Part shown: positions 1 through 18,382 of the stretch, piece by piece
How positions within the stretch are numbered: the stretch's first letter is position 1
How the letters are laid out: each line of letters starts with the position of its first letter
DNA from: a virus
Taxonomy: Duplodnaviria; Heunggongvirae; Uroviricota; Caudoviricetes
DNA: 22,905 nt
Direction: 5' to 3' (one strand)
Virus record (IMG/VR): IMGVR_UViG_2571042690_000020
Made by a program: the position numbers and the translations under genes
The notes under the pieces: model-generated
The model's database searches: none
The model's input: only the letters and a program-made list of their open reading frames with translations
What the model was told of the DNA's origin: nothing

Positions 1-216
1 TTACTCTCCCCGTGCCGCCTTACGACGGTCCTCTCTGATTTTGAAATACAGGTTAGTCAGATATGTCAGCAGCCCAAACAGCAGACTCCCCAGCACGCCT
101 ATTGCCGCCCACTGAGACGGGGAAACCCTGTCCAGCAACTGCAGGAACCAGTAGCCCGTTCCCACCGCTGACGTGGTGTATGACACACCTGTTGTGATTT
201 TTTCCATCTGGTACAT
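1..216 (-). CDS. S: Class II pinholin, phage 21 S-like, with dual start (M-Y-Q-M)
   Basis: The C-terminal 71 aa of the 1..294 ORF ([71 protein letters not shown]) closely match my recollection of the S21 pinholin: two TM segments, a charged [13 protein letters not shown] tail, and Met codons at positions 1 and 4 as in the S71/S68 antiholin/holin pair. GGAG-containing RBS upstream of ATG at 216. The in-frame N-terminal extension to 294 is rejected. Confidence 0.75.
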
Positions 217-366
217 ACCCCGTCTCCCGTTATCCGGAAGCTGACAACAATAAAAAAAGCCACCAGTTAAGTACTGATGGCTCTGATAACTCATGCAGGC
301 ATCTCAGACGACCCACTGACACTACCGGTGAGTTTAACGATACCTTCCATTTGACTGGCTCACTTT

Positions 367-678
367 TTATGATGATGCCGGTGCATTTATCTCCAGCACC
401 AGACTTTCTATCTCAACGCCATACGTTGCATTTTTGGTAATATCCGTCAGCGTCAGCGCATTCAGCCCCAGTGTCAGACTGTCTTTTATGACCTGGAATG
501 CCGGGCCAGCCACTCCATTCAGTTTCGGAGTAACCGTGGCACTGCCGGCGGTGAACACCAGCTCCAGCGTCTGCCAGTCGTTACTGTAATTCCCGAACTC
601 GCCCAACTTTGTGTTTCCTGCTTTCTTGTGATGCATCAGATTCAGTTTGCCGTCTGTGGTCTGGGTGAAGAACGACAT
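367..678 (-). CDS. Hypothetical protein; possibly the detached C-terminal segment of the upstream esterase (frameshift candidate)
   Basis: 103-aa ORF starting 11 nt downstream of the esterase stop, in a different frame. Its reading frame stays open upstream to about 720, overlapping the esterase 3' end. No recognisable motif. Confidence 0.4.
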   Translation of the reverse strand: MSFFTQTTDGKLNLMHHKKAGNTKLGEFGNYSNDWQTLELVFTAGSATVTPKLNGVAGPAFQVIKDSLTLGLNALTLTDITKNATYGVEIESLVLEINAPASS

Positions 679-688
679 CAGGAACGGG

Positions 689-2167
689 TTACCAGTCCCG
701 GGACAGTCGAAACTTACAGCTCAGTCTGCCACCCCGTGTCAGCAGGGAGACTGCGTCATCCACCGGGCGCGTCAGGGACCAGGCTTTATTGCTCTGCTTG
801 GTGATCTTAAATACACCCTCTGACAACTGAATTCCGCCATTCTTAATGCTCCAGCCCTGCGCAGCAGCATCTCCGGCTGTCGGCAACAGGGAGATTGTGC
901 GTACGGATGCATCTTCAGACGGCCCCGATGGCGTGTCGCCGCCGGGCGAGGGTTTGATTTCCGGTGCCTTACCACTGATGAAGGCTAAGGTGCGACCGGC
1001 TACGTTCAGAATAGCGGTTGCCATACGATCGGGAATAATGCCACGACGCGCCCATGAGCTGAAATGCGTCTGGCGATTTGATGATACCCAGTTTTTGTTC
1101 GTTCGGGATGCCGAACCGTAATATCCCTCACTTGCAGCATCCGGATCTTCCGTTGGTGCGTTGGTGGAGGTATTGTTGCCACTACCATCGGTCAGGAACG
1201 GCACAAAGAAAACGTTGTCGCTCTCCCTGTTTTTGTACGCCCCGTAAATGGTGTCGTACTGCGTGCCGTAGGTGTTTTTCCAGTAATACGTCGTGTCACC
1301 ACAAATCCATGGCACACTTGCCGCTCTGCCTCCATGACACTGCGTGTTAAACTCGGTAATGTCCGCACGAAACTGTTTCAGCATGGCCGTAAACAGCGGA
1401 GGTTGCTGTGAGTACGTAGCGGCGCTCATGTCAAATTCGCCCTGCATCCAGCATACGGCCAGCAGCATGTTTTTTGGGTTTTTCTGCAATGCGGCCTTCG
1501 TGCGCAAAATCAGGTCCTGATATAAAGGTTTACCCACACCCCAGCGAGCCGAATCCTGACTGGCTCCTGTGGACTCGCTGAATGTCCCCTCCGCGCCCTG
1601 GGTGAATGCCGAACCACCACGACAGCATGGAACCAGTAAAATCCCGGCATTCTGTGGAATGTAAGGCAACAGGCGTTTGGCAATATGCAAGCCCTGTCCG
1701 ACACAGCCATACTGCCCTTTGCTCAGGTCTGCATTCGGGTGATTCAGTGCGCTCATATCCTGAACATCATGCAGGCAGTGGTCTGCCGGAATGATGTCGT
1801 TAAATGCGCATGCTTTACCACCGGGAGTCACTGTGTTGCGACGGGCCAGTTGCTTAATGCGTGGGTGGGGCGCATCGTAAGAATCCGGCAGCGGCATTCC
1901 CTCACCATATGACATGGCATTGGATTGACCAGCAAGTACCACCACGTAATACCACTCCGGCACGCTGCCGTGCTGGGGGGAATCAGGTGAGATGTCTGTA
2001 GTGCCATCGGCCACCATTGCCTGCATTAGATACCACGGGGTGCCGGGTTCGTAGGCAACCCGCGTCTCCCCCTGAAGATGCCACCCTTTCGCAAGATGTT
2101 CATTCACCTTTTGAGTCAGTTCAGCCTGTGTCATGGCTGTAATCAGTGCAAAGTTCTTACTGGTCAT
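689..2167 (-). CDS. NanS-p-like sialate O-acetylesterase (SGNH/SASA hydrolase with DUF1737-like N-terminus)
   Basis: 492-aa ORF. GQSNAMSYGEG is the GQSN block of SGNH/sialate 9-O-acetylesterase family proteins. The N-terminal ~50 aa (MTSKNFALITAMTQAELTQKVNEHLAKGWHLQG...) resembles the DUF1737 domain found on prophage NanS-p esterases. Its ATG overlaps the o-spanin stop (ATGA at 2164-2167). Confidence 0.65.
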   Translation of the reverse strand: MTSKNFALITAMTQAELTQKVNEHLAKGWHLQGETRVAYEPGTPWYLMQAMVADGTTDISPDSPQHGSVPEWYYVVVLAGQSNAMSYGEGMPLPDSYDAPHPRIKQLARRNTVTPGGKACAFNDIIPADHCLHDVQDMSALNHPNADLSKGQYGCVGQGLHIAKRLLPYIPQNAGILLVPCCRGGSAFTQGAEGTFSESTGASQDSARWGVGKPLYQDLILRTKAALQKNPKNMLLAVCWMQGEFDMSAATYSQQPPLFTAMLKQFRADITEFNTQCHGGRAASVPWICGDTTYYWKNTYGTQYDTIYGAYKNRESDNVFFVPFLTDGSGNNTSTNAPTEDPDAASEGYYGSASRTNKNWVSSNRQTHFSSWARRGIIPDRMATAILNVAGRTLAFISGKAPEIKPSPGGDTPSGPSEDASVRTISLLPTAGDAAAQGWSIKNGGIQLSEGVFKITKQSNKAWSLTRPVDDAVSLLTRGGRLSCKFRLSRDW

Positions 2168-2475
2168 TGTGTTACTCCCGTCTGGTGTGTCAGTTCGGCT
2201 ATTCTCTTATCCAGTTCAGCAATGGCCCGTTTATCCGCGTTACAGGTTTCCAGTGCATCCAGAAGGCGGTCGCCCCATATTCCGAGGTTTCCCCATGTGG
2301 GTGGGTCAGGGAAGGGGGGAGGCGTTACCGGCATGGTCAGCGTCTGCGGTATAAGCCGGACTGACGGCGCTGGCCCTGGCGCGTTCTGCGTGCCTGCGCA
2401 ACCTGTCAGTAAAACGAGCGTCAGGCAAAGCGTGGGCGCATTCATCTTTTGCAATATCGTTGCGTAGCTGTTCAC
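2164..2475 (-). CDS. o-spanin (Rz1/LysC-like outer-membrane lipoprotein)
   Basis: Signal peptide with lipobox (LTLVLLTG-C), a Pro-rich mature part (PVTPPPFPDPP), and a frame partly overlapping the i-spanin gene. GTG start with GGAGAGG RBS; an alternative ATG lies at 2445. Confidence 0.65.
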   Translation of the reverse strand: MNSYATILQKMNAPTLCLTLVLLTGCAGTQNAPGPAPSVRLIPQTLTMPVTPPPFPDPPTWGNLGIWGDRLLDALETCNADKRAIAELDKRIAELTHQTGVTQ

Positions 2476-2701
2476 GTCTTACCTCTCCGTCCTGATTGCG
2501 TTGCTGATTTTCCGCGCGGAGCTGAGCCAGCACCTGCTGCATATCCTGTACCCCGGCGCTGATGATATTCAGTGTGTCGACGGTACTTTTCAGGGTGCTG
2601 GCCTGCGCTTCGTTTCTGGCGTTCTCCCGGCCCAGCGACCACGACAGACGCATGGATGTAATCAGAAGGAAAGCGACGCCAAGCGTGGGCCAGAGCTTCA
2701 T
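2306..2701 (-). CDS. i-spanin (Rz/LysB-like)
   Basis: Internal ATG at 2701 overlaps the endolysin stop (ATGA). N-terminal TM segment (LWPTLGVAFLLITSM) followed by a charged coiled-coil-like region. The upstream part of the 2306..2845 ORF overlaps the endolysin and is rejected. Confidence 0.65.
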   Translation of the reverse strand: MKLWPTLGVAFLLITSMRLSWSLGRENARNEAQASTLKSTVDTLNIISAGVQDMQQVLAQLRAENQQRNQDGEVRREQLRNDIAKDECAHALPDARFTDRLRRHAERARASAVSPAYTADADHAGNASPLP

Positions 2702-3090
2702 GCCGGATAGGCTCCGTGTGGTAACTGAAAATGCGGTCCGTCTTTCAGGGTCTTCCAGTCGCCGCCCCATTCCACCGGAATATTCAGTTCCTGGCTGGCC
2801 TGTCTGAATGCTGCTGCGATTTTTTCGTACAGCGGCCATTCCCATGACACCTGGTTGCCGACATAAGCCACAACATCCACGGCATGCCCTGTGAGATGGC
2901 GACTGTTCATGGTCTGGCTCTTGCCTGTGGTCACGAGCTGCTTCTGACGATAACGACTGCGCAATCCTTCGGTGATACCAAAATCCACTTCCGAGATTTC
3001 CAGCGCCCGTCGGGTCACTTTCACCAGATCAGGATTTACACCCTGCAAATTCTTTTCGCTCCGGCTGCTGAATTTAAATGTGTTGCTCAT
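2698..3090 (-). CDS. Endolysin, peptidase M15 family (L-alanyl-D-glutamate endopeptidase type)
   Basis: 130 aa with an SRHLTGHAVDV zinc-binding block typical of LAS/M15 phage endolysins. AAGGAGAGG RBS; start overlaps the holin stop (ATGA). Confidence 0.8.
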   Translation of the reverse strand: MSNTFKFSSRSEKNLQGVNPDLVKVTRRALEISEVDFGITEGLRSRYRQKQLVTTGKSQTMNSRHLTGHAVDVVAYVGNQVSWEWPLYEKIAAAFRQASQELNIPVEWGGDWKTLKDGPHFQLPHGAYPA

Positions 3091-3410
3091 TCGTTCCTCT
3101 CCTTCACCCTGCGATCAAATATTGCAATAACCTTGTCGCGTGCTTTCTCTGCGCCCATAAAACCGATTGAGGCACCAAAAAACGTCACTGCATCCTCAGG
3201 GATCCCGAAGAAGCGCAGCGACCCGGCCACGGCCATGGCAAGAACGCCGCACGCCAGCGATCCCGTTACGGTCTGAACCAGTGTTCGTCCGTCATAAAGA
3301 CTCATCAGCGCGGAAATGCTGACCGCCGCGCCTACTGCATACACCGTTGGCAGGTGGTCAAAGAGCCACGCAATAACCTGCTCTGTGATCCCTGTTTGAA
3401 TGGTGCTCAC
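3087..3410 (-). CDS. Holin (HP1/P2-region holin family, multi-TM)
   Basis: Hydrophobic segments (AVGAAVSISALM, GSLACGVLAMAVAGSL, FFGASIGFMGA) and a charged C-terminus, immediately upstream of the endolysin. GTG start at 3410 with a GGGGGGAG RBS, just after the X stop; an ATG further in is an alternative. The part of the 3087..3629 ORF overlapping X is rejected. Confidence 0.55.
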   Translation of the reverse strand: MSTIQTGITEQVIAWLFDHLPTVYAVGAAVSISALMSLYDGRTLVQTVTGSLACGVLAMAVAGSLRFFGIPEDAVTFFGASIGFMGAEKARDKVIAIFDRRVKERNE

Positions 3411-3412
3411 TG

Positions 3413-3619
3413 CTACTCCCCCCACAACTGAATCATTTCTCGTTTCTTCTTCTCCGGCTCCGGCATCTCCACTTCCTGCCCGGCGTCCAGAAATACCTGC
3501 TGACAGAGTCCGGGGTTGGCATCCAGCACCTTTTCGGTGACGCCCTGTGTCGTGCCGTAGTACCGGAAACAGAGCGAATCCACGGTGTCGCCTTCCAGTG
3601 CCTTCACTTTCATCAGCAC
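3413..3619 (-). CDS. X: Tail protein X (P2 gpX-like)
   Basis: 68 aa (MLMKVKALEGDTVDSLCFRYYG...) at the P2 gpX position between L and the holin. Confidence 0.8.
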   Translation of the reverse strand: MLMKVKALEGDTVDSLCFRYYGTTQGVTEKVLDANPGLCQQVFLDAGQEVEMPEPEKKKREMIQLWGE

Positions 3620-4116
3620 AGCTCCGCAAACATTCGCGGTCGTCCCAGAATGTCAGAGATGGCCCAGCTCACATCGCGCCACAAATCCGATGTCTGTATA
3701 TCCAGTGCGTCCGCCCGGCGGTCGCCCTTGTCCGTTGTGTCCGCATCGCGGTAACGCTCCAGAATCAGGGCGCGTGTGGCGGTATAAACAGCATTGCGCC
3801 AGTGCCAGAGATTGACGCTTTCTCCGTTAATTACAGGGGCCGGAACATCGGCCAGCGTCTGATAGCCAGCCGCCTGTTGTTCCTGCTGCCATGCTTCCAG
3901 CTCGCGGGTAACGTGTGCTATGGCCCCGGTGGCGGTATGCAGCAGGCGGGAGGTGGTCACGCGGCCCGGCAGTCGTACCGCCAGACGCAGCTCGCGCAGC
4001 ACAATATCCGGCCAGAATGCACCCGCTGAAATACGGGTATCGCCATCATCGGTGTCGGTGATGTCGTCCTCTGCGGGGCCGGGGTTAGTTCTGGCAACCA
4101 TACTCATGGGGTTCAC
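3613..4116 (-). CDS. L: Head completion/stabilisation protein (P2 gpL-like)
   Basis: 167 aa, positioned between terminase endonuclease subunit M and X as in P2/186. Confidence 0.8.
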   Translation of the reverse strand: MNPMSMVARTNPGPAEDDITDTDDGDTRISAGAFWPDIVLRELRLAVRLPGRVTTSRLLHTATGAIAHVTRELEAWQQEQQAAGYQTLADVPAPVINGESVNLWHWRNAVYTATRALILERYRDADTTDKGDRRADALDIQTSDLWRDVSWAISDILGRPRMFAELC

Positions 4117-4208
4117 TCCTGAAAAAATCGGGCGGTGGGTGCGCGGTGTAAACGGTCACGGAGTCAAACCGGAACACCGCGCACGCCGCCCGCTGACGGG
4201 GTCAGTCG

Positions 4209-5009
4209 TTAACCGCGCTTTGCCTTCTGCGTCGCGGTGGTTTTTCGTGTTGCAGGCTTCCGCGTTGTCTTTTTACTTTTGCTGCTTTCGTCCTGCGCCT
4301 GCTGTGCGCTGGCGTCTTCTGGTTCGGCTGCGGAATCGGCTTTTTTCAGGGCGCGGGAAAGGGTTGCAATCTCGCGTTTCACACCTGCGTTCGGGTTCAG
4401 GTGCATCGCTTCGCGCAGCAGCTTCAGTGATGAGGCCATGTTGTCTGCATCGGTCAGGCCACGACGGGCAAAGGCACACGCCTTGCATAATTTGGCGCGC
4501 ACTTCGTCCGGCATGTCCTGGTTGGCGATAATTTCCCAAAGTGTGTCCAGTGGTTCGATAAAGGCGGATAAATCCGCGTCGGCATCCGTCCCAGCCTGCG
4601 TCAGTACCGGGTTGCAGATTTCTTCGGTCAGTACCGTGGCAGCAGTACGGCCAAAGTTATCCGGCATGATGAGGTTGTGACGGACCACATATGCACCAAT
4701 ACGCAGCGCCAGCGGAAGATCGCCGCAGTCAATCGCCCACACCATCAGCGTGGCAATTACTTCGTCCTGTTGCCCGCCGTCAGCCTCCAGCGTTCCCTCA
4801 ATCCAGCCGGAAAAGTCCGGCAACAACTCTTTTTTGATGGCGGCTTTCGCGCTTCTGGCCTGTATGGCCTTTAGCCTGGCCTGTGCCAGACGCAGACGAT
4901 ACAGCACCTCTTCATGCGCGGTACACGCGGCGTGGTCCACACCTTCATTCGCCCGGCCTGCGCGCTGTGCCATCACGTTCTGCCAGTGTTGTTGTGCAGG
5001 AGTAATCAT
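4209..5009 (-). CDS. M: Terminase endonuclease (small) subunit (P2 gpM-like)
   Basis: 266 aa with a basic Lys/Thr-rich C-terminal tail, located between N and L. Confidence 0.8.
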   Translation of the reverse strand: MITPAQQHWQNVMAQRAGRANEGVDHAACTAHEEVLYRLRLAQARLKAIQARSAKAAIKKELLPDFSGWIEGTLEADGGQQDEVIATLMVWAIDCGDLPLALRIGAYVVRHNLIMPDNFGRTAATVLTEEICNPVLTQAGTDADADLSAFIEPLDTLWEIIANQDMPDEVRAKLCKACAFARRGLTDADNMASSLKLLREAMHLNPNAGVKREIATLSRALKKADSAAEPEDASAQQAQDESSKSKKTTRKPATRKTTATQKAKRG

Positions 5010-5054
5010 TTTTTCTCTCCGTTACAGGCGGGCATGATGCCCGCCGTGAGTTGA

Positions 5055-6107
5055 TTAGCTGTCGGCGAACTTCAGGCCAGTGACCATCGCGCACTTGCCA
5101 TAGTCTTCAACGACATAAGCGTCATTGATGGACTGGTAGGTGGCGATGCGGTTGTATTCCGGCTCGTCTTTCATCAGGCGACGCATTGAACCTTTCTGCC
5201 AGTAAATCGACAGGTTGTTGAACGAGGTGATAAGCATCGTTGCATCCGGGAAGAACGGCGCAAGGAACACGCCCAGCCCGCCAATGGTGCGCGATGACAG
5301 GATGAGCTGCCCGGCAAGTAATTCCGCATTGGGATTCTGGCCGCTGATGCTGTTCAGCACGGGCAGACGCAGCGAGTTAAACAGGTTGCGCCCCATAATC
5401 ACCGCGAGGTCGTCAGCTTCCTTGTGCCATTCATCCAGCAGGGATGAGCGCGCATCCTGTACCAGAGCATCGGCATTCGCATACTTACCCGCGTGCGCCA
5501 CAGTGTTGTCCATGTTGCGGGAGGTCAGCGTCACGTCATTCATTACGCGCTCGCTGGCATCGGTTCTGATGTGCTCCAGCCAGCCCACGTTAACGTCCTG
5601 AAGCAGCTTGTTGGTGTGAAAATCAGACTCGTAGGCGTGGGATGTGCCGTTAAAGCCAATCATGATGCGATCAAGCGCTACCTGCCGGGCGATCTGTGTA
5701 CTGATACGGGACTGAAAATCGCTGTGGGCCGCCCAGGTATCAAGCTGTGGGTACGAAATAAAGGTATCGTAGTTCACCTGTTCGCACTGGTACTGACGAG
5801 ACTTCATATCGATCACGTTATTCGGGTTACGGCGTTTGATGCCGTCATAACTGCTATTCGTGCGCGCAATTGGCCCGGTGGTGTCCAGGAGGATTTTTTC
5901 GCCTTTCTGGTCGGTCACGCCGATCACGTTAATTCTTTTCGTAAATTCGGTACTTTCCTTTGAGGCGTTTTCAAAACGCTGCTGCACCGCGGGTTCCACG
6001 GTAAATCGCGATACCAGTGCAGATACCGGGATATTGTTAAGCGACGCCTGCTGCGCCATATAGCAACCCAGCTTGTTGCGGGTAATATCTGACATCACCA
6101 GATTCAT
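5055..6107 (-). CDS. N: Major capsid protein (P2 gpN-like)
   Basis: 350-aa ORF directly downstream of the scaffold gene; size and position match P2 gpN. Confidence 0.85.
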   Translation of the reverse strand: MNLVMSDITRNKLGCYMAQQASLNNIPVSALVSRFTVEPAVQQRFENASKESTEFTKRINVIGVTDQKGEKILLDTTGPIARTNSSYDGIKRRNPNNVIDMKSRQYQCEQVNYDTFISYPQLDTWAAHSDFQSRISTQIARQVALDRIMIGFNGTSHAYESDFHTNKLLQDVNVGWLEHIRTDASERVMNDVTLTSRNMDNTVAHAGKYANADALVQDARSSLLDEWHKEADDLAVIMGRNLFNSLRLPVLNSISGQNPNAELLAGQLILSSRTIGGLGVFLAPFFPDATMLITSFNNLSIYWQKGSMRRLMKDEPEYNRIATYQSINDAYVVEDYGKCAMVTGLKFADS

Positions 6108-6130
6108 AAAAAATTTGCTCCTTTGTCTTA

Positions 6131-6967
6131 TCAGAAGTCAGCCAGCTGGTCGGAGGCTGCGCCCGTTGCGGTGAAGCGGTTCTGCGGATCGCCGTCCTGC
6201 GTGCGCAGTTTTTCCTTCAATGCTGTCAGCTCTGTGGTCAGTGACGTGATTTTCTGGCGGTCCTGCTGATGGCGGGTTTCCAGCACATTAAAACGGTCGA
6301 TAATGTCGGCCTGTGACGTTGCAACGCCTTCCACCGCTTCCTGAATTCGGGAGAAACTGGCGTCATCCGCTTTGCGGCCACGACCAATAATCCCCATTAC
6401 GCGGTTAAACCACTGGGTGCCTTCTTCCTGGCGTTGTTCTGCCATTTCGATGATTTCAGACTCGATGGCTTCGGAGATAAGCGGTGCTTCACCCTGGATA
6501 CTGTTGAACGTCATCACCGCCTGACGTTGCTGTGCCGTGAATTTCAGGCGCTCAGTGCCCAGGCTTGCCGGGGTGTCGGTCATCGCCAGCCCGACCAGAT
6601 AGGCGCGCCCGTTAACGGAGAACTGCGGGTGCAGTTCGATACTGGAATAGATTTTCTTGCCGTCAGCGACAAGCTGCTTCATGCGCTCGGTCGGTTCGAT
6701 TTCTGCATACAGCGCAGTACGTCCGGCCAGCGGACCTTCCGTAATGTCTTCCGTACTCAGTGCGGTGACATCGCCCATTGCGGAAAATTCGCTTGACGGA
6801 CATGGCGAGAGATAGTGCTCAACGTTCACGCGGGCAGCGTAAACATCCGGGTTGAAGTTCTCGGCGGCTTCACGCAGATGCACCGGACTGATTTCACGGC
6901 CATCAACAGTTGATCCGGAGACAGCCACGCGAAACTTTTTGCGGGATGTCTTTTTTTCATTAGCCAT
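6131..6967 (-). CDS. O: Capsid scaffolding protein (P2 gpO-like)
   Basis: Alignable by eye with P2 gpO (FRVAVSGSTVDGREIS..., YLVGLAMTDTPASLGTE). Start set at the internal ATG 6967 (MANEKK...), which has an AGAGGGG RBS, rather than the ORF-track start at 7000. Confidence 0.85.
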   Translation of the reverse strand: MANEKKTSRKKFRVAVSGSTVDGREISPVHLREAAENFNPDVYAARVNVEHYLSPCPSSEFSAMGDVTALSTEDITEGPLAGRTALYAEIEPTERMKQLVADGKKIYSSIELHPQFSVNGRAYLVGLAMTDTPASLGTERLKFTAQQRQAVMTFNSIQGEAPLISEAIESEIIEMAEQRQEEGTQWFNRVMGIIGRGRKADDASFSRIQEAVEGVATSQADIIDRFNVLETRHQQDRQKITSLTTELTALKEKLRTQDGDPQNRFTATGAASDQLADF

Positions 6968-7000
6968 AGTTTTTGCCCCTCTGACTGGTTCTTCAGTCAT

Positions 7001-7121
7001 GATGGCAAAGCGTAACAGGCTGATACAAAGGGCTTTTGTTGTAAGAAAACAGTCAGAACAGAGGGTTAAGGAGAACAGTTTCGCGCGCGGGTAATCTTCC
7101 TGTAATTACTCAGGGGGAGCA
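7001..7121. promoter_or_regulatory. Divergent late-promoter region between O and P operons (putative)
   Basis: About 120-bp intergenic gap between divergently transcribed head operons, where P2 places its Ogr-dependent late promoters. No consensus element was confirmed by eye. Confidence 0.3.
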
Positions 7122-8873
7122 ATGATTCAGGACGCTTTTGTGCGCCAGCGTGCGCGGCAACTTTACTGGCAGGGTTATCCGCCCGCAGAAATATCACGTC
7201 TGATGGGAATAAACCCGAACACGATTTATGCGTGGAAAAAACGTGACCAGTGGGATGAAACGCCACCCGTGCAGCGTGTCACGCAGTCCATCGATGCGCG
7301 CCTCATCCAGCTTACTGAAAAACAGAATAAAACAGGCGGTGACTTTAAGGAAATAGACCTGCTGACCCGGCAGCTTAAAAAGCTGCATGATGGCCAGCCG
7401 GATGTGATGGCCGCAGGAAAGAAAGGCCGGGCGAAAAAACTCAAAAATCATTTCACGCCGGAACAGATTGCCGCACTGCGGGAAAAAATCATCAGCAGGC
7501 TGGAGTGGCATCAGCGGGGCTGGTTTGACTCCCTGACCCTTTGCAGGGAAGCCGGGATACGTAACAGGATGATCCTGAAATCCCGACAGATTGGGGCGAC
7601 CTGGTATTTTGCACAGGAAGCACTGCTGATGGCGCTGCGTGACGATGTGGCGCAACCTTACCAGCGTAACCAGATTTTTTTGTCTGCGTCGCGTCGTCAG
7701 GCGTTCCAGTTTAAAAGCATTATTCAGAAGGCCGCGGCTGAAGTTGATGTGGAGCTGAAAGGGGGCGATAAAATCATCCTCTCCAACGGCGCAGAGCTGC
7801 ATTTTCTCGGCACTTCTGCTGCGTCGGCACAGTCCTATACGGGCAATTTTTATTTTGATGAATTTTTCTGGGTCAGTCGCTTTGCTGAACTGCGCAAGGT
7901 GGCTGGCGCTATGGCAACCCTCAGCGGACTGCGGCGCACCTACTTCTCCACGCCATCCACCGAAACGCACGAGGCATACGCCTACTGGAACGGCGACCGC
8001 TGGAACGAGAAAAAGGCCTCGCATAAACGCCAGCGTTTTTCTGTGGACTGGAAAACGCTGCATAATGGGCTTATCTGCCCTGACCGGACGTGGCGGCAAA
8101 TTGTCACGCTGGAAGATGTGGTTAATCACGGCTGGAAACACACCGATATCGACGAAATTCGTGATGAAAACACCGAAGACGAGTTCCTCAATCTCTATAT
8201 GTGTGAGTTTGTCCGCGAAGGGGAATCGGCATTTAACCTGAATATCCTGATTGGCTGCGGTGTTGACGGATACGACGACTGGAAAGACTGGAAACCTTTT
8301 GCTCCCCGCCCGATGGGGAATCGTCCGGTATGGATTGGGTATGACGCAAACGGCAGTAGTGGCAACGGCGACAGCGGCGCTGTGTCCGTGGTGGTTCCTC
8401 CGGCTGTTCCTGGCGGCCGTTTTCGAACGGTGGAGACGCGACGCGTTCAGGGGCTGGAGTTTGAAGAACAGGCCAGAGTCATTGAAGAGTTCACGTGTCG
8501 CTACAACGTGGAACACATCGGCATTGATGTGACGGGCGGGAACGGGGAGGCTGTTTATCAGATAGTGAAGCGGTTTTTCCCTGCTGCTATTCCGTACACC
8601 TTCACGCTGTCATCAAAACGGTCGCTGGTACTGAAAATGCTGCAAATAATGCGTGCCGGGCGGTGGGAATACGATCGCGCCGAACGCGAGCTGGTCGCGG
8701 CCTTTAACGCCGTGCGTAAGGTGAAAACACCGGGCGGCTTTATCACTTACGAAACGGACCGCGCGAGGGGGATCAGCCACGGCGACCTTGCGTGGGCAAC
8801 CATGCTTGCTGTCATTAACGAACCAATTGGCGGCGAAGGAGAAAACGAGCGTTTCATGGTTATGGAGTTCTGA
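7122..8873 (+). CDS. P: Terminase ATPase (large) subunit (P2 gpP-like)
   Basis: 583-aa ORF upstream of and overlapping the portal gene; size and synteny match P2 gpP. Confidence 0.9.
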   Translation: MIQDAFVRQRARQLYWQGYPPAEISRLMGINPNTIYAWKKRDQWDETPPVQRVTQSIDARLIQLTEKQNKTGGDFKEIDLLTRQLKKLHDGQPDVMAAGKKGRAKKLKNHFTPEQIAALREKIISRLEWHQRGWFDSLTLCREAGIRNRMILKSRQIGATWYFAQEALLMALRDDVAQPYQRNQIFLSASRRQAFQFKSIIQKAAAEVDVELKGGDKIILSNGAELHFLGTSAASAQSYTGNFYFDEFFWVSRFAELRKVAGAMATLSGLRRTYFSTPSTETHEAYAYWNGDRWNEKKASHKRQRFSVDWKTLHNGLICPDRTWRQIVTLEDVVNHGWKHTDIDEIRDENTEDEFLNLYMCEFVREGESAFNLNILIGCGVDGYDDWKDWKPFAPRPMGNRPVWIGYDANGSSGNGDSGAVSVVVPPAVPGGRFRTVETRRVQGLEFEEQARVIEEFTCRYNVEHIGIDVTGGNGEAVYQIVKRFFPAAIPYTFTLSSKRSLVLKMLQIMRAGRWEYDRAERELVAAFNAVRKVKTPGGFITYETDRARGISHGDLAWATMLAVINEPIGGEGENERFMVMEF

Positions 8874-9919
8874 TGAGCAGAAAAAATAAAAAAGTGCGCA
8901 TGAGTTCACGCATTGATCTCGCTGATGCGCTCAGGAAAGAATCATCGCTCAGTGCATTCACATTTGATGGTCCTTATCGCCTGACCGGGCATGACCTGCT
9001 GGACAATATGTACTGTGCTGATAACGGGCGGTGGTATGAAACCCCGGTGGACTGGTACGGTCTGGCAAGAGCAGCCCGGCAAACGTCCTGGCATCAGTCT
9101 GCGCTTTACTTTAAGCGCAATGTATTACTCGGTTGCTACATCCCGCACCCGCTGCTTTCCCGGCAGGATTTCTCGGCGCTGGCGCTGGACTGGTTTGTGT
9201 TCGGTAACGCATTCCTTGAGCTTCGAAGCAATATGCTCGGCGAACCGCTTAAATTACGGCACGCCCTGGCGAAATACATGCGACGCGGAAGCGATCTTGA
9301 ATCATGGTGGTATGTGCAGGATGGCAAGGACGCGTTTCAGTTTCGTCCTGGCAAAGTGTGCCACCTGATGAATCCGGATATTAACCAGGAAATCTACGGC
9401 ATGCCGGAATATCTTGGCGCATTACTCTCGGCCAGCCTTTCTCATTCGGCGGACATGTTCAGAAAACTGTACTACGACAACGGATCCCACGCCGGGTGCA
9501 TCATCTACATCGGTGCAGCGCAGGTAAACCGCGAAAGCATGGACTCCCTGAAAGAAACGCTACAGGGGGCACGTGGTGGTGGTGCGTTTAAAAACGTGCT
9601 CATTCATGCGCCCAACGGGGGCAAAGAGGGGGTGCAAATTTTGCCGTTCCAGCAGATCACCGCAAAAGATGAATTCATGAATGTTAAGGCGGCATCCCGT
9701 GATGATGTGCTGGCTGCGCACCGCGTTCCGCCGCAACTGATGGGGGCGATGCCGGGCGAAAAAAGTGCGTTTGGCGATGTGGAGAAGGCAGCGCGGGTTT
9801 ACGCAATTAACGAGCTGATGCCCGTTATGGAGGCTATGAAGCACATCAATGACTGGCTTGGCGAAGAGGTGATCCGTTTTAACTCTTATGCTCTTCTTGA
9901 TGAAAAAACAGCCCCGTGA
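8873..9919 (+). CDS. Q: Portal protein (P2 gpQ-like)
   Basis: 348-aa ORF whose start overlaps the terminase stop (TGATG), as in the P2 PQ operon. Confidence 0.85.
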   Translation: MSRKNKKVRMSSRIDLADALRKESSLSAFTFDGPYRLTGHDLLDNMYCADNGRWYETPVDWYGLARAARQTSWHQSALYFKRNVLLGCYIPHPLLSRQDFSALALDWFVFGNAFLELRSNMLGEPLKLRHALAKYMRRGSDLESWWYVQDGKDAFQFRPGKVCHLMNPDINQEIYGMPEYLGALLSASLSHSADMFRKLYYDNGSHAGCIIYIGAAQVNRESMDSLKETLQGARGGGAFKNVLIHAPNGGKEGVQILPFQQITAKDEFMNVKAASRDDVLAAHRVPPQLMGAMPGEKSAFGDVEKAARVYAINELMPVMEAMKHINDWLGEEVIRFNSYALLDEKTAP

Positions 9920-9935
9920 TGGGGCTGTCCTTTTT
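9903..9935. terminator. Bidirectional intrinsic terminator between convergent genes
   Basis: AAAAA-ACAGCCCC-GTGAT-GGGGCTGT-CCTTTTT: an 8-bp GC-rich stem flanked by an A-run and a T-run. The portal stop codon lies in the loop. Confidence 0.6.
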
Positions 9936-10458
9936 ACCAGAGTTGAACCATTTTCTGGGTGCCGTCAGGCTTGAGATTATCAATTTCAGAGAGAACGTAA
10001 TATTGAATGGCTTCACAAACGGTGGTGTAGGGTGAATTACCTTCTTTAAGTGGCACGATATTATTATTAACGCGAACCTGTATTTCATCGTTATACATTG
10101 CGATCGAAACAGGAGTGTGCACGAACGCGACTTCGCCAGGTGTGTCGTCAACCACCGTTTCAATACTAAAAGTCAGTTTTCGCTCATCATTGCTGCCCCG
10201 TGCTTTGGGGGTAGCGGCAGGGATCTGGGATAAAGGCATTCTGCGAAATCCTTCGGCTGCTTCCAGTCCGCATGAAACGTAATGCTGGCGATTACCGTCG
10301 CTATCTGTCCAGGTCTGTGATGGCAGCTCCAGCGAGATTTCATAAGCATCAACAATGCCCTGGGCAAGGCGTACAAGCGGGGTCAGATCTTCATTGCGGC
10401 GAAAGCTCTCCTTTACCTGCTCCCGTTTTTCTCTTAACTGCTTGTAATTAATGACCAT
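9934..10458 (-). CDS. Hypothetical cargo protein (unknown function)
   Basis: 174-aa ORF from an internal ATG at 10458 with a GGAGG RBS (the ORF-track start at 10497 lacks one). Convergent with the portal gene, in the position P2 uses for accessory genes such as old/tin. Confidence 0.55.
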   Translation of the reverse strand: MVINYKQLREKREQVKESFRRNEDLTPLVRLAQGIVDAYEISLELPSQTWTDSDGNRQHYVSCGLEAAEGFRRMPLSQIPAATPKARGSNDERKLTFSIETVVDDTPGEVAFVHTPVSIAMYNDEIQVRVNNNIVPLKEGNSPYTTVCEAIQYYVLSEIDNLKPDGTQKMVQLW

Positions 10459-10558
10459 AAGACAGCCTCCATTGATTTCTTTGCTCGTATTTTGCACTTA
10501 TGAAGTATGGTCGGCAAGGTGCCGTATCGCTGACGCGCTTCGCTTGTCTGCTGCTTCG

Positions 10559-10585
10559 CCGGGGCATAAAAAATTTATGCCCCGG
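10559..10585. repeat. Perfect 27-bp palindrome CCGGGGCATAAA-AAA-TTTATGCCCCGG
   Basis: 12-bp perfect inverted arms around a 3-bp centre, about 100 bp upstream of the 9934..10458 gene start. No flanking T-run, so not a classic terminator. Confidence 0.5.
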
Positions 10586-10956
10586 CTCTCCAGCTCCTGT
10601 ATCAATCAGATAATTTCACGACGCCTTCCAGTTTATCGCCACCATCGACGGTCAGACTCTTACGCAATTCCACCGCGTTGACTGCATGTTCTCGCTGCCT
10701 CAGTGCGATTTTGACGGCCTTACCTTTCACCCCATCAAATCAAAAGCCCTCACGCCTTTTTCATGCTCAGCGTGAGAAATATGGCCATTCTGTTGTGTCT
10801 CTGCGACATCGTTCAGGGAATGCTATTTACCCCCTGAAACGCGGGCTGTTCCCCCGTCACCTGCGCGCAGAAAAAGCGCGTTTTTTTGTGCACGCACGGA
10901 TCCTTGACGGATCCAGCCGCCATGCGGGCCGGAAGGGTAAAAAGTCGTTCAAAAAA

Positions 10957-10984
10957 ATTGTGCAAATTTGTGCACTTTTGTGCA
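10957..10984. promoter_or_regulatory. Three phased copies of (A/T)TTGTGCA at 10-bp spacing
   Basis: ATTGTGCA, TTTGTGCA and TTTGTGCA begin at 10957, 10967 and 10977, one helical turn apart, upstream of a TTGACC -35-like hexamer at 11004-11009. Candidate operator or activator array. Confidence 0.35.
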
Positions 10985-11084
10985 GGTAAGCATGCCTATA
11001 TATTTGACCGTGGCTTGCCTTTGATGTAGTTTATACGTCACAAAAACCACAAAACGTGGTTATGATTTCTATGAGGGGGTTGAT

Positions 11085-11120
11085 ATGAAAAAAATGTATG
11101 ATGAATTTGATGGTTTCTAA
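11085..11120 (+). CDS. Candidate 11-codon leader peptide (MKKMYDEFDGF)
   Basis: GAGGGGG RBS five nt upstream of the ATG. The stop sits 19 nt before an intrinsic terminator and about 60 nt before the first operon gene. Confidence 0.3.
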   Translation: MKKMYDEFDGF

Positions 11121-11139
11121 GCTACGTTGACCTCTAATG

Positions 11140-11168
11140 AGGCGGGGATTTGCTCCCCGCCTTTTTTA
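11140..11168 (+). terminator. Intrinsic terminator/attenuator hairpin
   Basis: AGGCGGGGA-TTTGC-TCCCCGCCT followed by TTTTTT, ending 13 nt before the ATG at 11182. Confidence 0.6.
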
Positions 11169-11181
11169 TGGATGAAATAGG

Positions 11182-11679
11182 ATGAACCCAATAACACTAC
11201 AAATCATCAGCAATGCTATTGTTCTGCTTGGCGTTTTGGTTGCCATTGGAACCATTATCTACAATGTGCGTACCGCAAAAAAAACTCAAACGGCCAACTT
11301 TCTTTTTGAGAGTCGGCAAGATATGCAATATATAGAGTCATTGCATACCCTGAAACAAGTGCATCGTTCAGGCAAATCATTTCGTTCTTATGTTTTTCCT
11401 TGTGATGGTTGCATAATAACAGATGAAGAAATGGCCGAGCGTCGAAAATTTCAATATATTTTAAATTTTTACGAGCGAGTTGCTGTAAGTATTCGTGAAG
11501 GTATTTATGATGAAAAAATGATAAAAAGAACATCTTACACAACAGTTGTAGAGACATATGATATTGCCGAGCCATTAATTAAAGCAATCAGAGAAAGCAT
11601 TAATTCGGATACTACATATCAAGAATTCGAATGGTTAGTAAGAAGATGGAAAGCTAATCCTTTACGGAAAAACAAATAA
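11182..11679 (+). CDS. Hypothetical membrane-anchored protein (N-terminal TM helix, ~140-aa soluble domain)
   Basis: 165-aa ORF. Residues 5-27 are hydrophobic (TLQIISNAIVLLGVLVAIGTIIY). Markedly AT-rich coding sequence compared with the flanking phage genes. Confidence 0.6.
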   Translation: MNPITLQIISNAIVLLGVLVAIGTIIYNVRTAKKTQTANFLFESRQDMQYIESLHTLKQVHRSGKSFRSYVFPCDGCIITDEEMAERRKFQYILNFYERVAVSIREGIYDEKMIKRTSYTTVVETYDIAEPLIKAIRESINSDTTYQEFEWLVRRWKANPLRKNK

Positions 11680-11718
11680 TGTTTTACCCTTTAATTTACA
11701 AGTAACACAGGGGGAAGT

Positions 11719-12561
11719 GTGACACAGAATCCGTTTTCATTTTATGACTTTTTGGGCTATCTAATTCCAGGTGGGTTATTCCTGTTTATCCTTTTTTTGT
11801 TTTCTATTGAAATTAACCCTGTTTATATAGAAGGTATTCTTAACCATATCCTGAAATATAAAGAAATAATAAGTGTATTTATATATGTGGTATTAATCGT
11901 TCTATCATATATTTCAGGTCACTTCATATCTATTCTATCATCCTGTTTAATTGAAAAATACATGAACAGTAAACTTGGGTATCCTTCAATTTATCTGTTT
12001 TCTAAAAGAAGCTCCCTGAAAATAAAACGACATAATACTAAGTTCAGTATAGTTAATTTTATTCGTGGAGTTTTTTTATTTCCTGTATCAGCTTTTGATA
12101 AAGCAGAACATCATAAAACCACACTGCATTCTATACTTATTAAAGTCTTTTGGCCGCAAATACGAGATGGTTATATAAATGTTTTTTCTGTATCTACGCT
12201 ATATCGACGTAAGGGCTTGAGGGGCGATCTTTTTCGCCTTGCTTATCATTATGTGTATGAACATTCTAAAAATCATCAGGTGAAAATGCAAAACTATGTT
12301 GCTTTGTATGGTTTTTGTAGAAACATTACATTTGTTTTTCTCGCTTCAGTCTGGTTGCTTATGTTCCTGCTCCTTCTATCCTTTTTAATAGATATAAATA
12401 TCAGACTGTTACCTTTTTGTTTTCTTCTCTTGTTTTGTATTGCTGCATCCCGAGTATTTTATTATGGTTTTGTTAAGTATTATCGCCGCTATTCTCTTGA
12501 GGTTTTAATGGCATTTGCGGTACTTCAGCACGATAAAAAAACTTCGGCAATTTCATCATGA
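11719..12561 (+). CDS. Hypothetical polytopic inner-membrane protein (4-5 predicted TM segments)
   Basis: 280-aa ORF with a GTG start and AGGGGGA RBS, 39 nt after the preceding gene. Several long hydrophobic segments (FLGYLIPGGLFLFILFLF, IISVFIYVVLIVLSYISGHFISIL, ITFVFLASVWLLMFLLLLSFLI, LLPFCFLLLFCIAASRVFYYGF). Very AT-rich. Confidence 0.6.
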   Translation: MTQNPFSFYDFLGYLIPGGLFLFILFLFSIEINPVYIEGILNHILKYKEIISVFIYVVLIVLSYISGHFISILSSCLIEKYMNSKLGYPSIYLFSKRSSLKIKRHNTKFSIVNFIRGVFLFPVSAFDKAEHHKTTLHSILIKVFWPQIRDGYINVFSVSTLYRRKGLRGDLFRLAYHYVYEHSKNHQVKMQNYVALYGFCRNITFVFLASVWLLMFLLLLSFLIDINIRLLPFCFLLLFCIAASRVFYYGFVKYYRRYSLEVLMAFAVLQHDKKTSAISS

Positions 12562-12571
12562 TTTGAAACAT

Positions 12572-12597
12572 TGGCACCCTGTTAGCAAGGGTGCCAG
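12572..12597. terminator. Hairpin between convergent membrane operon and parR (putative terminator)
   Basis: GGCACCCT-GTTAGCA-AGGGTGCC, an 8-bp stem lying between the two convergent 3' ends. No strong T-run. Confidence 0.35.
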
Positions 12598-12644
12598 AAT
12601 GATGTGTTGGTCTGTATTTTATTAGTTCACATACAATTATCAGA

Positions 12645-12959
12645 TTATTCTGGGAATAAGGTCTGAATATTCTTTTTTATTTTATAAAAATTGCATTCAA
12701 CTCCGCTAGGCTGATTATCCTGGTATGTTTCCTTGATGCTAACGGTATTGAAGGGGAGGTTGTCCTCTGGCCATTCGGCCATCCAGTAGGCAAATGCTGG
12801 GTTGCGCTTTATGAGCGCTAGCCCAGCCAGAAAGGCCGCGCGTTGCGCGCGGCTGCGTTCGGAGGCTGGCAGGCTATCGAGGTAATTGCACGCCTCCTGT
12901 TCACTCTTGACGGCGGCGGGCTTCAGATAGAAACTTATCCGTCTGGTTGGTGTCGTCAT
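12645..12959 (-). CDS. parR: ParR-like centromere-binding protein (ribbon-helix-helix adaptor)
   Basis: Internal ATG at 12959 with an AAGGAG RBS, 5 nt after the parM stop. The N-terminus (RISFYLKPAAVKSEQEACNYLDSLPASERSRAQRAAFLAGLAL) resembles plasmid R1 ParR as I recall it. Confidence 0.6.
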   Translation of the reverse strand: MTTPTRRISFYLKPAAVKSEQEACNYLDSLPASERSRAQRAAFLAGLALIKRNPAFAYWMAEWPEDNLPFNTVSIKETYQDNQPSGVECNFYKIKKNIQTLFPE

Positions 12960-12963
12960 TGGT

Positions 12964-13923
12964 TTACTCCTTGTCCATTGCGTACAGCCCATTAACCAGA
13001 GCAAACTGTGGCACCCCGTCCGCGATGAAAGTCGCATTAACTCCGCAGACTTCGCGGATAGCGGGTGCCACAATCTCCGCCCCTCCACCGACAACCATCA
13101 CCCGCCCGTAACCCGAAAAAACCGCCAGCGCGCGGATCACGCGTTGTTTCAGTGTTTCTTCCTTTTCACGAATAACCGCCATCAGGCTGGCGTAATGCGC
13201 GTCATTGTGGATGTGCTGGCGCAGCCAGGCTTCATCATGGCGATGTTCGATAATGGTATTGGCGATGTGGTGACTGGTGCGCATACCGTTAGTGGCCATC
13301 ACCGACAGTACGGCATCGGCCATCAGGGAAACGCCTACGTGTGGATCGCAAAACACCTGGCTGATACCTGCCAGTTGCCCTTGAACCTTTGCCACATCCA
13401 GCGTGGTTCCGCCTAAATCCACAATCAGCAGGGATTCAAACGGACTCATGTCAGCCAGTGCTTTAAAGCCAGCCGGAATGGATTCAGGCATAACCCGCAC
13501 GTTACGGATAGTGAATGCTTCGCCGTTCTGGTATTCCACCGGGCGCATAACGTTCGCTTTTTTGCGGTTGATGTTGGCCATGTCCGGCTGTGCGTTTGTG
13601 TCGAAATACTCGCTCAGTGGCAGGGTGACAACCACATCCACCTCCTGTGGCGTGATGCCTGATTTGACCAGCGCGTGATGAATGGCGATTACATTCACAT
13701 CGCTGTACTGGTATTGCGTGTCGGTCGTCTGGACAAAGCGATCGCTAACCGGATCAAAACCATAGCGCACGCCATCAAGCATGTAGTTCGCGGGCTGCAT
13801 GCCACCGAACGGCGCAGACCATTCCGACTTGAAGCTGTTCGGGCTGATGGCGTTGCGGCGTTCGCCATTCTCAGTCCATGCCAGCTTGATGTTGGTGGAG
13901 CCGTCGTCGATACAAATTTTCAT
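12964..13923 (-). CDS. parM: ParM/StbA-family actin-like segregation ATPase
   Basis: 319 aa. The N-terminus (MKICIDDGSTNIKLAW...ISPNSFKSEW...YSDVNVIAIHHAL...VDVVVTLPL) tracks my recollection of plasmid R1 ParM closely, including the phosphate-binding DDGSTN block. Confidence 0.8.
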   Translation of the reverse strand: MKICIDDGSTNIKLAWTENGERRNAISPNSFKSEWSAPFGGMQPANYMLDGVRYGFDPVSDRFVQTTDTQYQYSDVNVIAIHHALVKSGITPQEVDVVVTLPLSEYFDTNAQPDMANINRKKANVMRPVEYQNGEAFTIRNVRVMPESIPAGFKALADMSPFESLLIVDLGGTTLDVAKVQGQLAGISQVFCDPHVGVSLMADAVLSVMATNGMRTSHHIANTIIEHRHDEAWLRQHIHNDAHYASLMAVIREKEETLKQRVIRALAVFSGYGRVMVVGGGAEIVAPAIREVCGVNATFIADGVPQFALVNGLYAMDKE

Positions 13924-13952
13924 GTCGCTTTTCCTTATGTTGATTAATTAAT

Positions 13953-13993
13953 CGTTTACGGGATTCTGAAATCCCGTTTTTGCCTGTTTTGTG
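13953..13993. repeat. Copy 1 of ~41-bp element with internal dyad (ACGGGATTCTGAAATCCCGT)
   Basis: Lies in the A-parM intergenic region, directly upstream of the parM start. About 85% identical to copy 2. Confidence 0.5.
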
Positions 13994-13999
13994 CGCGCT

Positions 14000-16822: not shown

Positions 16823-16828
16823 AGTGAT

Positions 16829-17194
16829 TTACTTCGTCATGCCATTCAGGGTGTCGCGGCAGACTGTAGCCAGCCGCTGAATTTCCAGCACGGTGTCTTC
16901 TGTGTCGGCATGGCGATGTGTGATGCGGATGCTGTCGGCAATCACATCGACGATTGCAGAGGATGGGCGCTGGTAAATGCCAATAACGGACGGGGTGCCA
17001 CCTTCAATGCGGTAAAGCCTGTAATTTCCCTCGTGGCTGTCAATCATGTAGCGACCATCAATAACAATCTTTCCGTCAGCGAGCTGCGGTACAGGCAGGG
17101 ATTTCAGGTACATGTCATAACGATCACGCACGCGAGCGGCAAGATCACGTTCTGTATTGAGCAGGTATTCAAGAAAGTCGTTGGCGAGAATCAT
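16829..17194 (-). CDS. Hypothetical early-operon protein
   Basis: 121-aa ORF with an AAGAGGA RBS, stopping 4 nt before the A start. Confidence 0.55.
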   Translation of the reverse strand: MILANDFLEYLLNTERDLAARVRDRYDMYLKSLPVPQLADGKIVIDGRYMIDSHEGNYRLYRIEGGTPSVIGIYQRPSSAIVDVIADSIRITHRHADTEDTVLEIQRLATVCRDTLNGMTK

Positions 17195-17266
17195 TGCGGC
17201 AATCCTCTTGTTACAGATGTGCGAAGGCCTCCCGCCGCAAGGTGCAGGAAAGGCCCGGAACAGGAA

Positions 17267-17497
17267 TTAATGGAGTTTGTTTTGCTGCTGGATGAGCTGT
17301 TGAAGCTCGTGCAGATCATCCGCCAGATAGCTGAAAACAGAGGCGGAATAAATGTTTGATAGTGCGTGGCTGCGCTCATGCAGCATATTGATGTGCATGA
17401 TTTGCGCGACGCGTGATGCGCGGGAAAGTCTGCGGTTGATTTCAGTCTGGATGTGACGACGCTCCGCGATAGCGCGGTGCTGTTTGCGGTTTGCCAT
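17267..17497 (-). CDS. Hypothetical small basic protein
   Basis: 76-aa ORF with an AAGGGG RBS. Confidence 0.5.
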   Translation of the reverse strand: MANRKQHRAIAERRHIQTEINRRLSRASRVAQIMHINMLHERSHALSNIYSASVFSYLADDLHELQQLIQQQNKLH

Positions 17498-17676
17498 GGT
17501 GTGGCCCCTTGTGTAGTAAGTTGTGAAAACTCACCATCCAGAGCTGCGAAACTGTGGGTGGCGAGACGTACGAGGTTCGCAGTACCGGCTACACAAGAAC
17601 CCGGCCCGACCGAAGTCGGCCCCGTACGCCCCGCCATAATTCTGACGCGAAAAAAACGTGGCAATACAGTACGCAC

Positions 17677-17698
17677 AAAAAAACCGCTGGCGCGGTTG
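17677..17698 (-). terminator. Intrinsic terminator (minus strand) downstream of the 17820..18119 gene
   Basis: On the minus strand the region reads AACCGC-GCCA-GCGGTT followed by TTTTTTTT. Confidence 0.45.
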
Positions 17699-17819
17699 TG
17701 CGCTTGTGTAGTCAGCAGGCTGCGAAACCCGGCACCCGTTTTATGAGGTGCAGCGGAAATGTAACCTGACTGATTGCGGCATGGCAAGCGGTTTTTTTGT
17801 GTGTGCATGCTCTGGTTTC

Positions 17820-18119
17820 TTACTGGTTCAGAAAAAAATCAAAAACCTTGTCAATACGTTGCAGCAGCTCTTGCTGTATTGCTTCCGGCGTTTCCGGTTC
17901 GCCTGGCACCTCCAATGTCGCGCAGAAATCAGCGATTTCATGATGGAGCGTCAGGCGAATGGCAGGAGCCGTGGTTCTGGCGTGCTCCAGCTCATCCAGC
18001 AATGCCAGCGCAGCAGACGGCGAGAGCATTGCGCGAAATGCCAGTAATTTTTGAGGTGTTGCCATTCGTTGCAGGGCAAATGCCAGTTCGCGTAGCTTCT
18101 GGTGGTTGATGGTGCTCAT
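17820..18119 (-). CDS. Hypothetical early-operon protein
   Basis: 99-aa ORF whose ATG overlaps the upstream stop (ATGA). Confidence 0.55.
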   Translation of the reverse strand: MSTINHQKLRELAFALQRMATPQKLLAFRAMLSPSAALALLDELEHARTTAPAIRLTLHHEIADFCATLEVPGEPETPEAIQQELLQRIDKVFDFFLNQ

Positions 18120-18382
18120 GTTCTGGCTTCCTTCAGTAGCTGGTTAAACATGTGAGTAAGTGGATTGCTACACCCGAACGGCATCGGGTTTACGTGGTAA
18201 GAAGCCTGGCCTCCAGTTTTGCGAGCGCGACCACCTGTGCTGCGGTTTGTTCTGATGACTAAGCCGCCGCGCCAAAGTTGGCGTAACTCAGCATTAATGG
18301 CTGTGGTTGGAGTATTCAGTGCTGCGGCGATCTCTCCGCCGCTACACCCCGGATGAGTAGCGATGTAGTCCAGAATGGTCAT
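18116..18382 (-). CDS. Putative winged-helix DNA-binding protein
   Basis: 88 aa, translationally coupled at both ends (ATGA overlaps). The N-terminal region (ILDYIATHPGCSGGEIAAALN) looks like a wHTH. Confidence 0.5.
   Translation of the reverse strand: MTILDYIATHPGCSGGEIAAALNTPTTAINAELRQLWRGGLVIRTNRSTGGRARKTGGQASYHVNPMPFGCSNPLTHMFNQLLKEART

Follow-up and report, generated by a model that had tools for sequence, protein, structure and literature searches.

Here we report that the two lysis modules lying close together in a 22,905-nucleotide stretch of Caudoviricetes DNA (IMG/VR record IMGVR_UViG_2571042690_000020; the whole of this stretch is referred to below as the window) belong, as judged from sequence identity, to two different known prophages of Escherichia coli sequence type 131 (ST131), joined inside an esterase gene that both of them carry. 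One module is the lysis cassette of the P2-like prophage Phi1 and the other is a pinholin of the phage 21 type from the lambdoid prophage Phi4. We give an even chance to the reading that the window is the junction of a ∼489-kb inversion between Phi1 and Phi4 in the source strain. The components are all members of known families, and both parent prophages have already been described.

Positions 702-22905 of the window are 100% identical to Phi1 (segments 702-3700, 702-11700 and 11461-22905 were compared with strain EC958), and the identity ends at 22905, the stop codon of the integrase gene, which adjoins dmsA. Phi1, named as a P2-like prophage at ∼950-988 kb in the EC958 genome paper (PMC4134206), is integrated between serS and dmsA and has the phages vB_EcoM-569R5 and vB_EcoM-705R2 as close relatives. 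Its order of gpL, gpX, holin, M15 endolysin, LysB/LysC and esterase is that of the window, except that the esterase of the window is broken off at codon 488, beyond which Phi4 sequence follows. Positions 1-701 are 100% identical to Phi4 in strain 4/1-1 and in many other genomes, the pinholin segment included, and are 99.7% identical to Stx2-converting phage 86, which the late region of Phi4 resembles. The order of esterase 3′ end, terminator and class II holin is likewise that of Phi4, but the window holds only a 701-bp piece, whereas in Phi4 Q, the tRNAs, IraM and the 5′ part of the esterase lie upstream and YdfR, lysozyme, Rz and terminase lie downstream. Phi1 and Phi4 are resident in the same genomes. 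The original prediction, made from the window alone, had proposed a recombinational junction between P2-like and lambdoid late regions. In substance this was correct (702-22905 from Phi1, 1-701 from Phi4), but the junction had been misplaced, as it lies inside the esterase at 701/702. The features around it are as follows:

701/702, no strand: breakpoint, joined bluntly and without microhomology, lacking 80 bp that both parents have and shifting the reading frame
451-817, no strand: remainder (367 of 447 bp) of a block identical in Phi1 and Phi4, delimited from the mismatch map, which hides the parental switch
689-2167, minus strand: esterase open reading frame (ORF) of 492 amino acids with DUF1737 and SASA domains (PF08410, PF03629), its product ending in SRDW
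702-2167, minus strand: 5′ part of the Phi1 esterase, 488 codons, 100% identical to EC958 Phi1
367-678, minus strand: ORF of 103 amino acids with the C-terminal DUF6645 domain of the esterase (PF20350; phrog_143 positions 529-632 of 634), Phi4 allele, out of frame, 100% identical to Phi4
256-284, minus strand: terminator-like hairpin and T-run, a stem of 12 pairs and then TTTTTATTGTT, in the Phi4 sequence that separates esterase and pinholin
1-216, minus strand: phage-21-type class II holin (pinholin-like) of 71 amino acids, PF04971 at 112.5 bits (cut-off 26), starting MYQM

The mismatch map places the last Phi4-diagnostic base at 450 and the first Phi1-diagnostic base at 818, and between these two positions the parental switch is in register, save for the 80-bp loss. 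The missing 80 bp correspond to positions 8318-8397 of the EC958 locus (L001) and are present in both parents. No direct repeats flank the loss and its two edges have no bases in common. Slippage or a k-mer shortcut was considered as its source and rejected, since there is neither a direct repeat spaced by ∼80 nt nor a common suffix at the edges. The blunt join also creates a palindrome, CCCGGG, at 696-707, which occurs in neither parent at that place and is probably a coincidence.

Because the loss shifts the frame, the esterase of the window is split into the 492-amino acid ORF, with its stop codon at 689-691, and the separate 103-amino acid ORF. The DUF1737, SASA and DUF6645 domains can all be detected, but they are divided between these two ORFs rather than forming one intact protein, and to judge from this arrangement the esterase is presumably inactive. 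The truncation, the frameshift and the discontinuity inside the esterase had been missed by the original prediction.

In EC958, the Phi1 esterase is an intact protein of 625 amino acids, annotated as DUF6645, that is encoded between lysC and gpR/gpS, with baseplate genes following. The relatives examined likewise have an intact esterase of 625 or 626 amino acids followed by gpR and gpS. In 372 closed E. coli genomes the lysis cassette runs on without a break into the esterase. An assembly collection has the exact LysB protein in 16,858 of its indexed blocks, and among the 10 LysB matches listed every contig that reaches beyond the esterase has P2 tail genes there. On the strength of this contiguity and of the tail genes beyond, an esterase after LysC reads as the native and normal state of this P2-like lineage and not as a junction. 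A junction between lysC and the esterase was accordingly rejected, as translational coupling through an ATGA and 100% identity to Phi1 extend down to 702. The domain order DUF1737-SASA-DUF6645 is that of the NanS-p 9-O-acetyl sialate esterases of Stx and lambdoid prophages, to whose lambdoid copies the Phi1 esterase is 85-88% identical; it differs from these in that the Phi1-lineage gene lies in a P2-type late operon and is translationally coupled to lysC.

The esterases of Phi1 and Phi4 are 87% identical over 1671 nt, but this identity is unevenly spread. The 5′ 1.2 kb are ∼85% identical and the last 63 bp ∼76%, while towards the 3′ end there are 4 differences in 753 bp (window 451-1123; L001 8067-8819 compared with L002), a stretch made up of the 447-bp perfect block and the following 306 bp, which contain all 4 differences. 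Such a mosaic suggests an earlier exchange of sequence between the two prophages. The homology between Phi1 and Phi4 is confined to the esterase and ends at its 3′ end, yet the window runs 369 nt further in sequence found only in Phi4. Gene conversion was rejected on this ground: with homology limited to the esterase it could not import the terminator and the holin, and a crossover is needed.

The two parental segments lie on a single chromosome in strain 4/1-1, with the Phi1 segment at 963310-966705 on the plus strand and the Phi4 segment at 1455709-1456409 on the minus strand, so that the two esterase genes are inverted repeats ∼489 kb apart. A crossover between inverted esterase repeats would invert the intervening chromosome, and one of the two junctions so formed should run, left to right, from the holin through the 3′ end of the Phi4 esterase, the 5′ part of the Phi1 esterase, the P2 lysis genes, head genes, replication genes and integrase to dmsA, which is the order of the window; the loss of 80 bp at the crossover would then put the hybrid esterase out of frame. 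The parentage, the breakpoint, which lies inside the identical block, the geometry and the gene identities can be read directly, while the existence of the join in the cell is what we infer.

An inversion between prophages that involves Phi1 is present in a closed genome, that of strain 4/0, in which it runs between Phi1 and Phi2. In this genome (L020; NZ_CP023849.1, 950000-999900), most of Phi1 and the chromosome from dmsABC through aroA are inverted over a span of ∼45 kb; the inverted part of Phi1 carries the fibre, baseplate, lysis, head, replication and integrase genes, and the ends of the inversion are the invertase/tail-fibre regions of Phi1 and Phi2. More broadly, changes in core-genome synteny, mostly inversions, have been reported in 26 of 222 closed ST131 genomes (∼12%; PMC11739808). 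The window resembles known inversions between prophage paralogs of E. coli in having inverted repeats in two prophages and a breakpoint within a block of identity; it differs from them in that the Phi1-Phi4 pairing and its junction occur in none of 5,426 closed genomes and in the 80-bp loss, which is atypical of homologous recombination. Inversions mediated by rRNA genes, but none between Phi1 and Phi4, are reported in a preprint on wound isolates of ST131, which names its prophages in the same PHASTER style.

One deposited sequence argues for a real join. GenBank record PV468777.1, a prophage record in PHASTER style from an ST131 strain, is a single-nucleotide polymorphism (SNP) away from the window and starts at window position 704, the codon-aligned end of the esterase homology (codon 488, the last whole one before the break). 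It labels the esterase piece as non-coding and “similar to DUF1737 protein”, and its boundary is neither the end of an ORF nor an att repeat. The record has no Phi1 tail genes on the side of the break; on the other side it continues through 17 kb of chromosome into Phi2. Its SNP occurs in no closed RefSeq genome, and the source of the record must therefore lie outside that collection. The accession was named in no paper found, and no companion deposited record for the Phi4 side was found. Although titled a complete phage genome, PV468777.1 (L003, 22500-38500) includes ∼17 kb of host chromosome (dmsABC, pflAB, focA, ycaO, serC and aroA) and the beginning of another prophage; what it represents is a region called by prophage prediction rather than the genome of a phage.

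Several observations weigh against an inversion. No match to the junction 50-mer (window 677-726) exists among 5,426 closed E. coli genomes or 50,697 phage records, the junction 31-mer is absent from IMG/VR, the GTDB representatives and the JGI metagenomes, and the 492-amino acid product is absent from the indexed gene collection. The link to PV468777.1 rests on the boundary of that record and not on sequence spanning the junction. Homologous recombination does not delete 80 bp, and a blunt loss of this kind needs a second event or an unusual repair. Inverting ∼489 kb inside a single replichore close to the terminus should carry a fitness cost. Finally, a 447-bp perfect repeat is a classic site of misjoining in short-read assembly, and misassembly of ST131 prophages has been documented for strain NA114 (PMC4134206).

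A lookup of the 103-amino acid ORF matched only unrelated deletion variants of Phi4-like prophages. In two of these, from the Logan collection (L006, 9180-10312; L007, 5223-6355), a DUF968 gene directly abuts the same ORF; both lack the Q gene, the tRNAs and the 5′ part of the esterase, suggesting a deletion of separate origin with one end inside the esterase.

A rival reading is an assembly chimera, in which the source would carry normal copies of both Phi1 and Phi4 and a Phi4 contig would have been joined to a Phi1 contig inside their common esterase repeat; we regard this explanation as quite possible, if at somewhat below an even chance. The breakpoint lies inside a perfect repeat present in two copies, the join is blunt, lacks microhomology and flanking direct repeats and has sequence missing, standard ST131 sequence matches either flank at 100% identity, and none of the closed genomes or other collections searched contains the junction. 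Short-read contigs moreover often end in this block, as seen in one contig (L019) and 16 similar ones, in ON470599 at window position 917 and in ON470626 at position 513. The missing 80 bp would be accounted for if contig ends had been abutted, or if a real small deletion in one copy had been followed by a path switch within the remaining 116-251 bp of identity. However, a plain path switch in a de Bruijn graph would not drop 80 bp, and there is no k-mer shortcut that would do so; the extensions of the two contigs into the repeat (251 and 116 nt) fit no single value of k; and PV468777.1, a distinct record, is broken off at this very codon and has no Phi1 tail genes on that side, which is hard to obtain by random abutment of contigs. 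The block is also detectable in only two copies per ST131 genome. A third copy of the esterase that might have set contig ends at 701/702 was considered but found no support, as queries with window 1-720 and 630-775 each gave two matches per ST131 genome.

The same junction data would also apply to a hybrid prophage, in which Phi1 had gained a late segment of Phi4 or of an incoming lambdoid phage (esterase 3′ end, holin and onward) by crossover in the esterase. The window stops at the holin stop codon, leaving sequence further to the left out of view, and the identical block at the 3′ end of the esterases points to an earlier exchange of sequence between the two alleles. On the other hand, the parents are inverted relative to each other in one chromosome, which directly predicts an inversion, there is no homology past the esterase with which to close a replacement tract, and no such hybrid occurs among the 50,697 phage records. 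Nor would a P2 head joined to late genes of lambdoid type make a packageable unit. We consider a hybrid prophage improbable.

The pinholin of the window and its surroundings are Phi4 sequence. In Phi4 the genes Q, methylase, tRNAs, IraM and SASA esterase are followed, in this order, by the class II holin, YdfR, lysozyme (rrrQ), Rz and terminase. The Phi4 lysozyme has 177 amino acids, and its N-terminus, MNAKIRYGLSAAVLALIAAGAPAP, is rich in Ala and Gly and hydrophobic, as is expected of a signal-anchor-release (SAR) endolysin from the example of phage 21; we would thus expect it to be of the SAR type. As the pinholin of the window is 100% identical to Phi4, where YdfR, the SAR-type lysozyme and Rz follow it, its sequence identifies it as the gene that opens the lysis cassette of Phi4 itself. 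Its partner genes lie outside the window: no SAR endolysin or spanins follow the pinholin within it, as it stops at the holin stop codon.

The likeness to the S21/R21 pair of phage 21 comprises the match to the S21 family (PF04971), the length of 71 amino acids, two Met starts, a strong hydrophobic segment after a weak one and, in Phi4, a partner lysozyme with an Ala/Gly-rich hydrophobic segment at its N-terminus. Both Met1 and Met4 are present (MYQM), three codons apart and with no Lys or Arg between them. By prediction, only residues 34-58 pass the Kyte-Doolittle threshold, and residues ∼8-28 are weakly hydrophobic, as the family leads one to expect. In contrast to S21, the N-terminal extension MYQ is without Lys and antiholin behaviour is not evident, and in contrast to phage 21 Phi4 has YdfR between holin and lysozyme.

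Every gene in window 1-4116 is carried by the minus strand. The P2-like holin, M15 endolysin, overlapped spanins, esterase and phage-21-type pinholin that the original prediction had listed on one strand were all recovered where it had placed them. The genes of the P2-like part, in order of transcription, are:

3613-4116, minus strand: gpL
3413-3619, minus strand: gpX, P2-type tail protein X (PF05489, E=9e-21), 100% identical to EC958 Phi1, directly upstream of the lysis cassette
3087-3410, minus strand: Phi1 holin of 107 amino acids with a GTG start (PF05106, 69 bits; phrog_126 holin/anti-holin, E=1e-34)
2698-3090, minus strand: M15 peptidase endolysin of 130 amino acids (PF13539; phrog_465 endolysin, E=4e-76)
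2306-2701, minus strand: LysB-type i-spanin of 131 amino acids (phrog_214 Rz-like spanin, E=1.5e-39; weak DUF2570 match)
2164-2424, minus strand: LysC-type o-spanin lipoprotein of 86 amino acids (PF23793 LysC, 51.5 bits; lipobox LLTGC), annotated lysC in EC958

Overlaps of stop and start codons (ATGA) chain the holin, the M15 endolysin, LysB, LysC and the esterase. Hydropathy analysis gave hydrophobic stretches at residues 19-39 and 43-72 of the Phi1 holin and an N-terminal transmembrane segment in LysB (hydrophobic residues 1-23); the M15 endolysin has no N-terminal hydrophobic segment and by this measure is a soluble enzyme. LysC and LysB overlap by 119 nt in different frames, and LysC runs beyond the LysB stop, making them an overlapped rather than an embedded pair. 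As in a P2-type cassette, the holin comes directly after gpX, the endolysin directly after the holin, and LysB and LysC overlap. The lysA gene that such a cassette has between endolysin and lysB is not present, the ATGA at 2698-2701 leaving no room for it. The product of P2 gene K belongs to a different enzyme class from the M15 peptidase, and with the latter in its place the cassette is a P2-like variant. The tail completion genes gpR and gpS are absent from the window, and neither follows the spanins and esterase there. With a holin of the large-hole type, a soluble endolysin and a two-component spanin, the cassette appears complete and self-sufficient and should need nothing from the pinholin.

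This last point bears on the proposal, also made in the original prediction, that a single phage has redundant or cooperating systems of holins, one being a P2-type holin with its endolysin and the other a pinholin. It is true that neither holin gene is disrupted and that 3.4 kb of one strand hold them both. But the pinholin segment is 100% identical to another prophage of the same genomes, where it is accompanied by its own SAR-type lysozyme and Rz and heads a cassette that is normally ∼489 kb from the P2-type one; in the P2-like relatives examined it is gpR and gpS that follow the esterase, and there is no pinholin; cassette and esterase form one contiguous unit in the 372 closed genomes mentioned above; and the terminator parts the pinholin from the operon upstream. 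A pinholin, furthermore, only depolarises the membrane to release a SAR endolysin, and could not export the soluble M15 enzyme. We therefore reject redundancy of holins in a single phage, which we regard as very improbable.

Phi1 has further features that lie apart from the junction. Between the portal gene and the ParM genes there is an AT-rich island (window 10500-12600; GC content 0.30-0.38 against ∼0.55 around it) that encodes a DUF4760 protein (11182-11679) and a 280-amino acid protein (11719-12561), the latter with no Pfam match and a weak PADLOC match to Csx27 (E=1e-5); P2-like phages often carry defence or cargo genes at this site. A plasmid-type segregation pair at 12645-13923, consisting of ParM (StbA_N and ParM C-terminal domain, E=3e-82) and a Plasmid_stab_B protein, adjoins the replication endonuclease gene. 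In EC958 Phi1 (L004, 15000-23300), the block from tail sheath to gpU lies on the strand opposite to the baseplate and fibre genes, and the gpD homolog is short, at 266 amino acids. Because of this strand flip and the short gpD homolog, even the standard genomes of ST131 may carry a Phi1 that is rearranged or defective.

If the join is real, recombination in the shared esterase would have inverted ∼489 kb of the ST131 chromosome and disabled both prophages in a single event, with the lambdoid lysis and morphogenesis genes now placed downstream of an Ogr-dependent P2 late operon; we put this full sequence of events at just short of an even chance. Phi1 would be disabled by being cut off from its tail genes (R, S and onward), and Phi4 by the parting of its Q/pR′ region from its late genes. 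The terminator at 256-284 would be read through in Phi4 by Q-modified polymerase coming from pR′, and an Ogr-activated P2 late transcript would probably stop there before reaching the pinholin.

For the biology of lysis the window is of little import, as both cassettes are standard and come from different described prophages. It does serve as a warning: where a prophage prediction seems to show a dual lysis system or a hybrid phage, this can be a junction, genuine or artefactual, at a cargo gene that co-resident prophages have in common. If true, the inversion would be a strain-specific rearrangement of ∼0.5 Mb in a pandemic clone, with two prophages inactivated and one copy of the esterase destroyed, and would hold modest interest for work on the plasticity of genomes and the domestication of prophages. 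It would then illustrate how cargo genes shared between prophages can act as recombination handles that immobilise the prophages and reshape the chromosome of their host.

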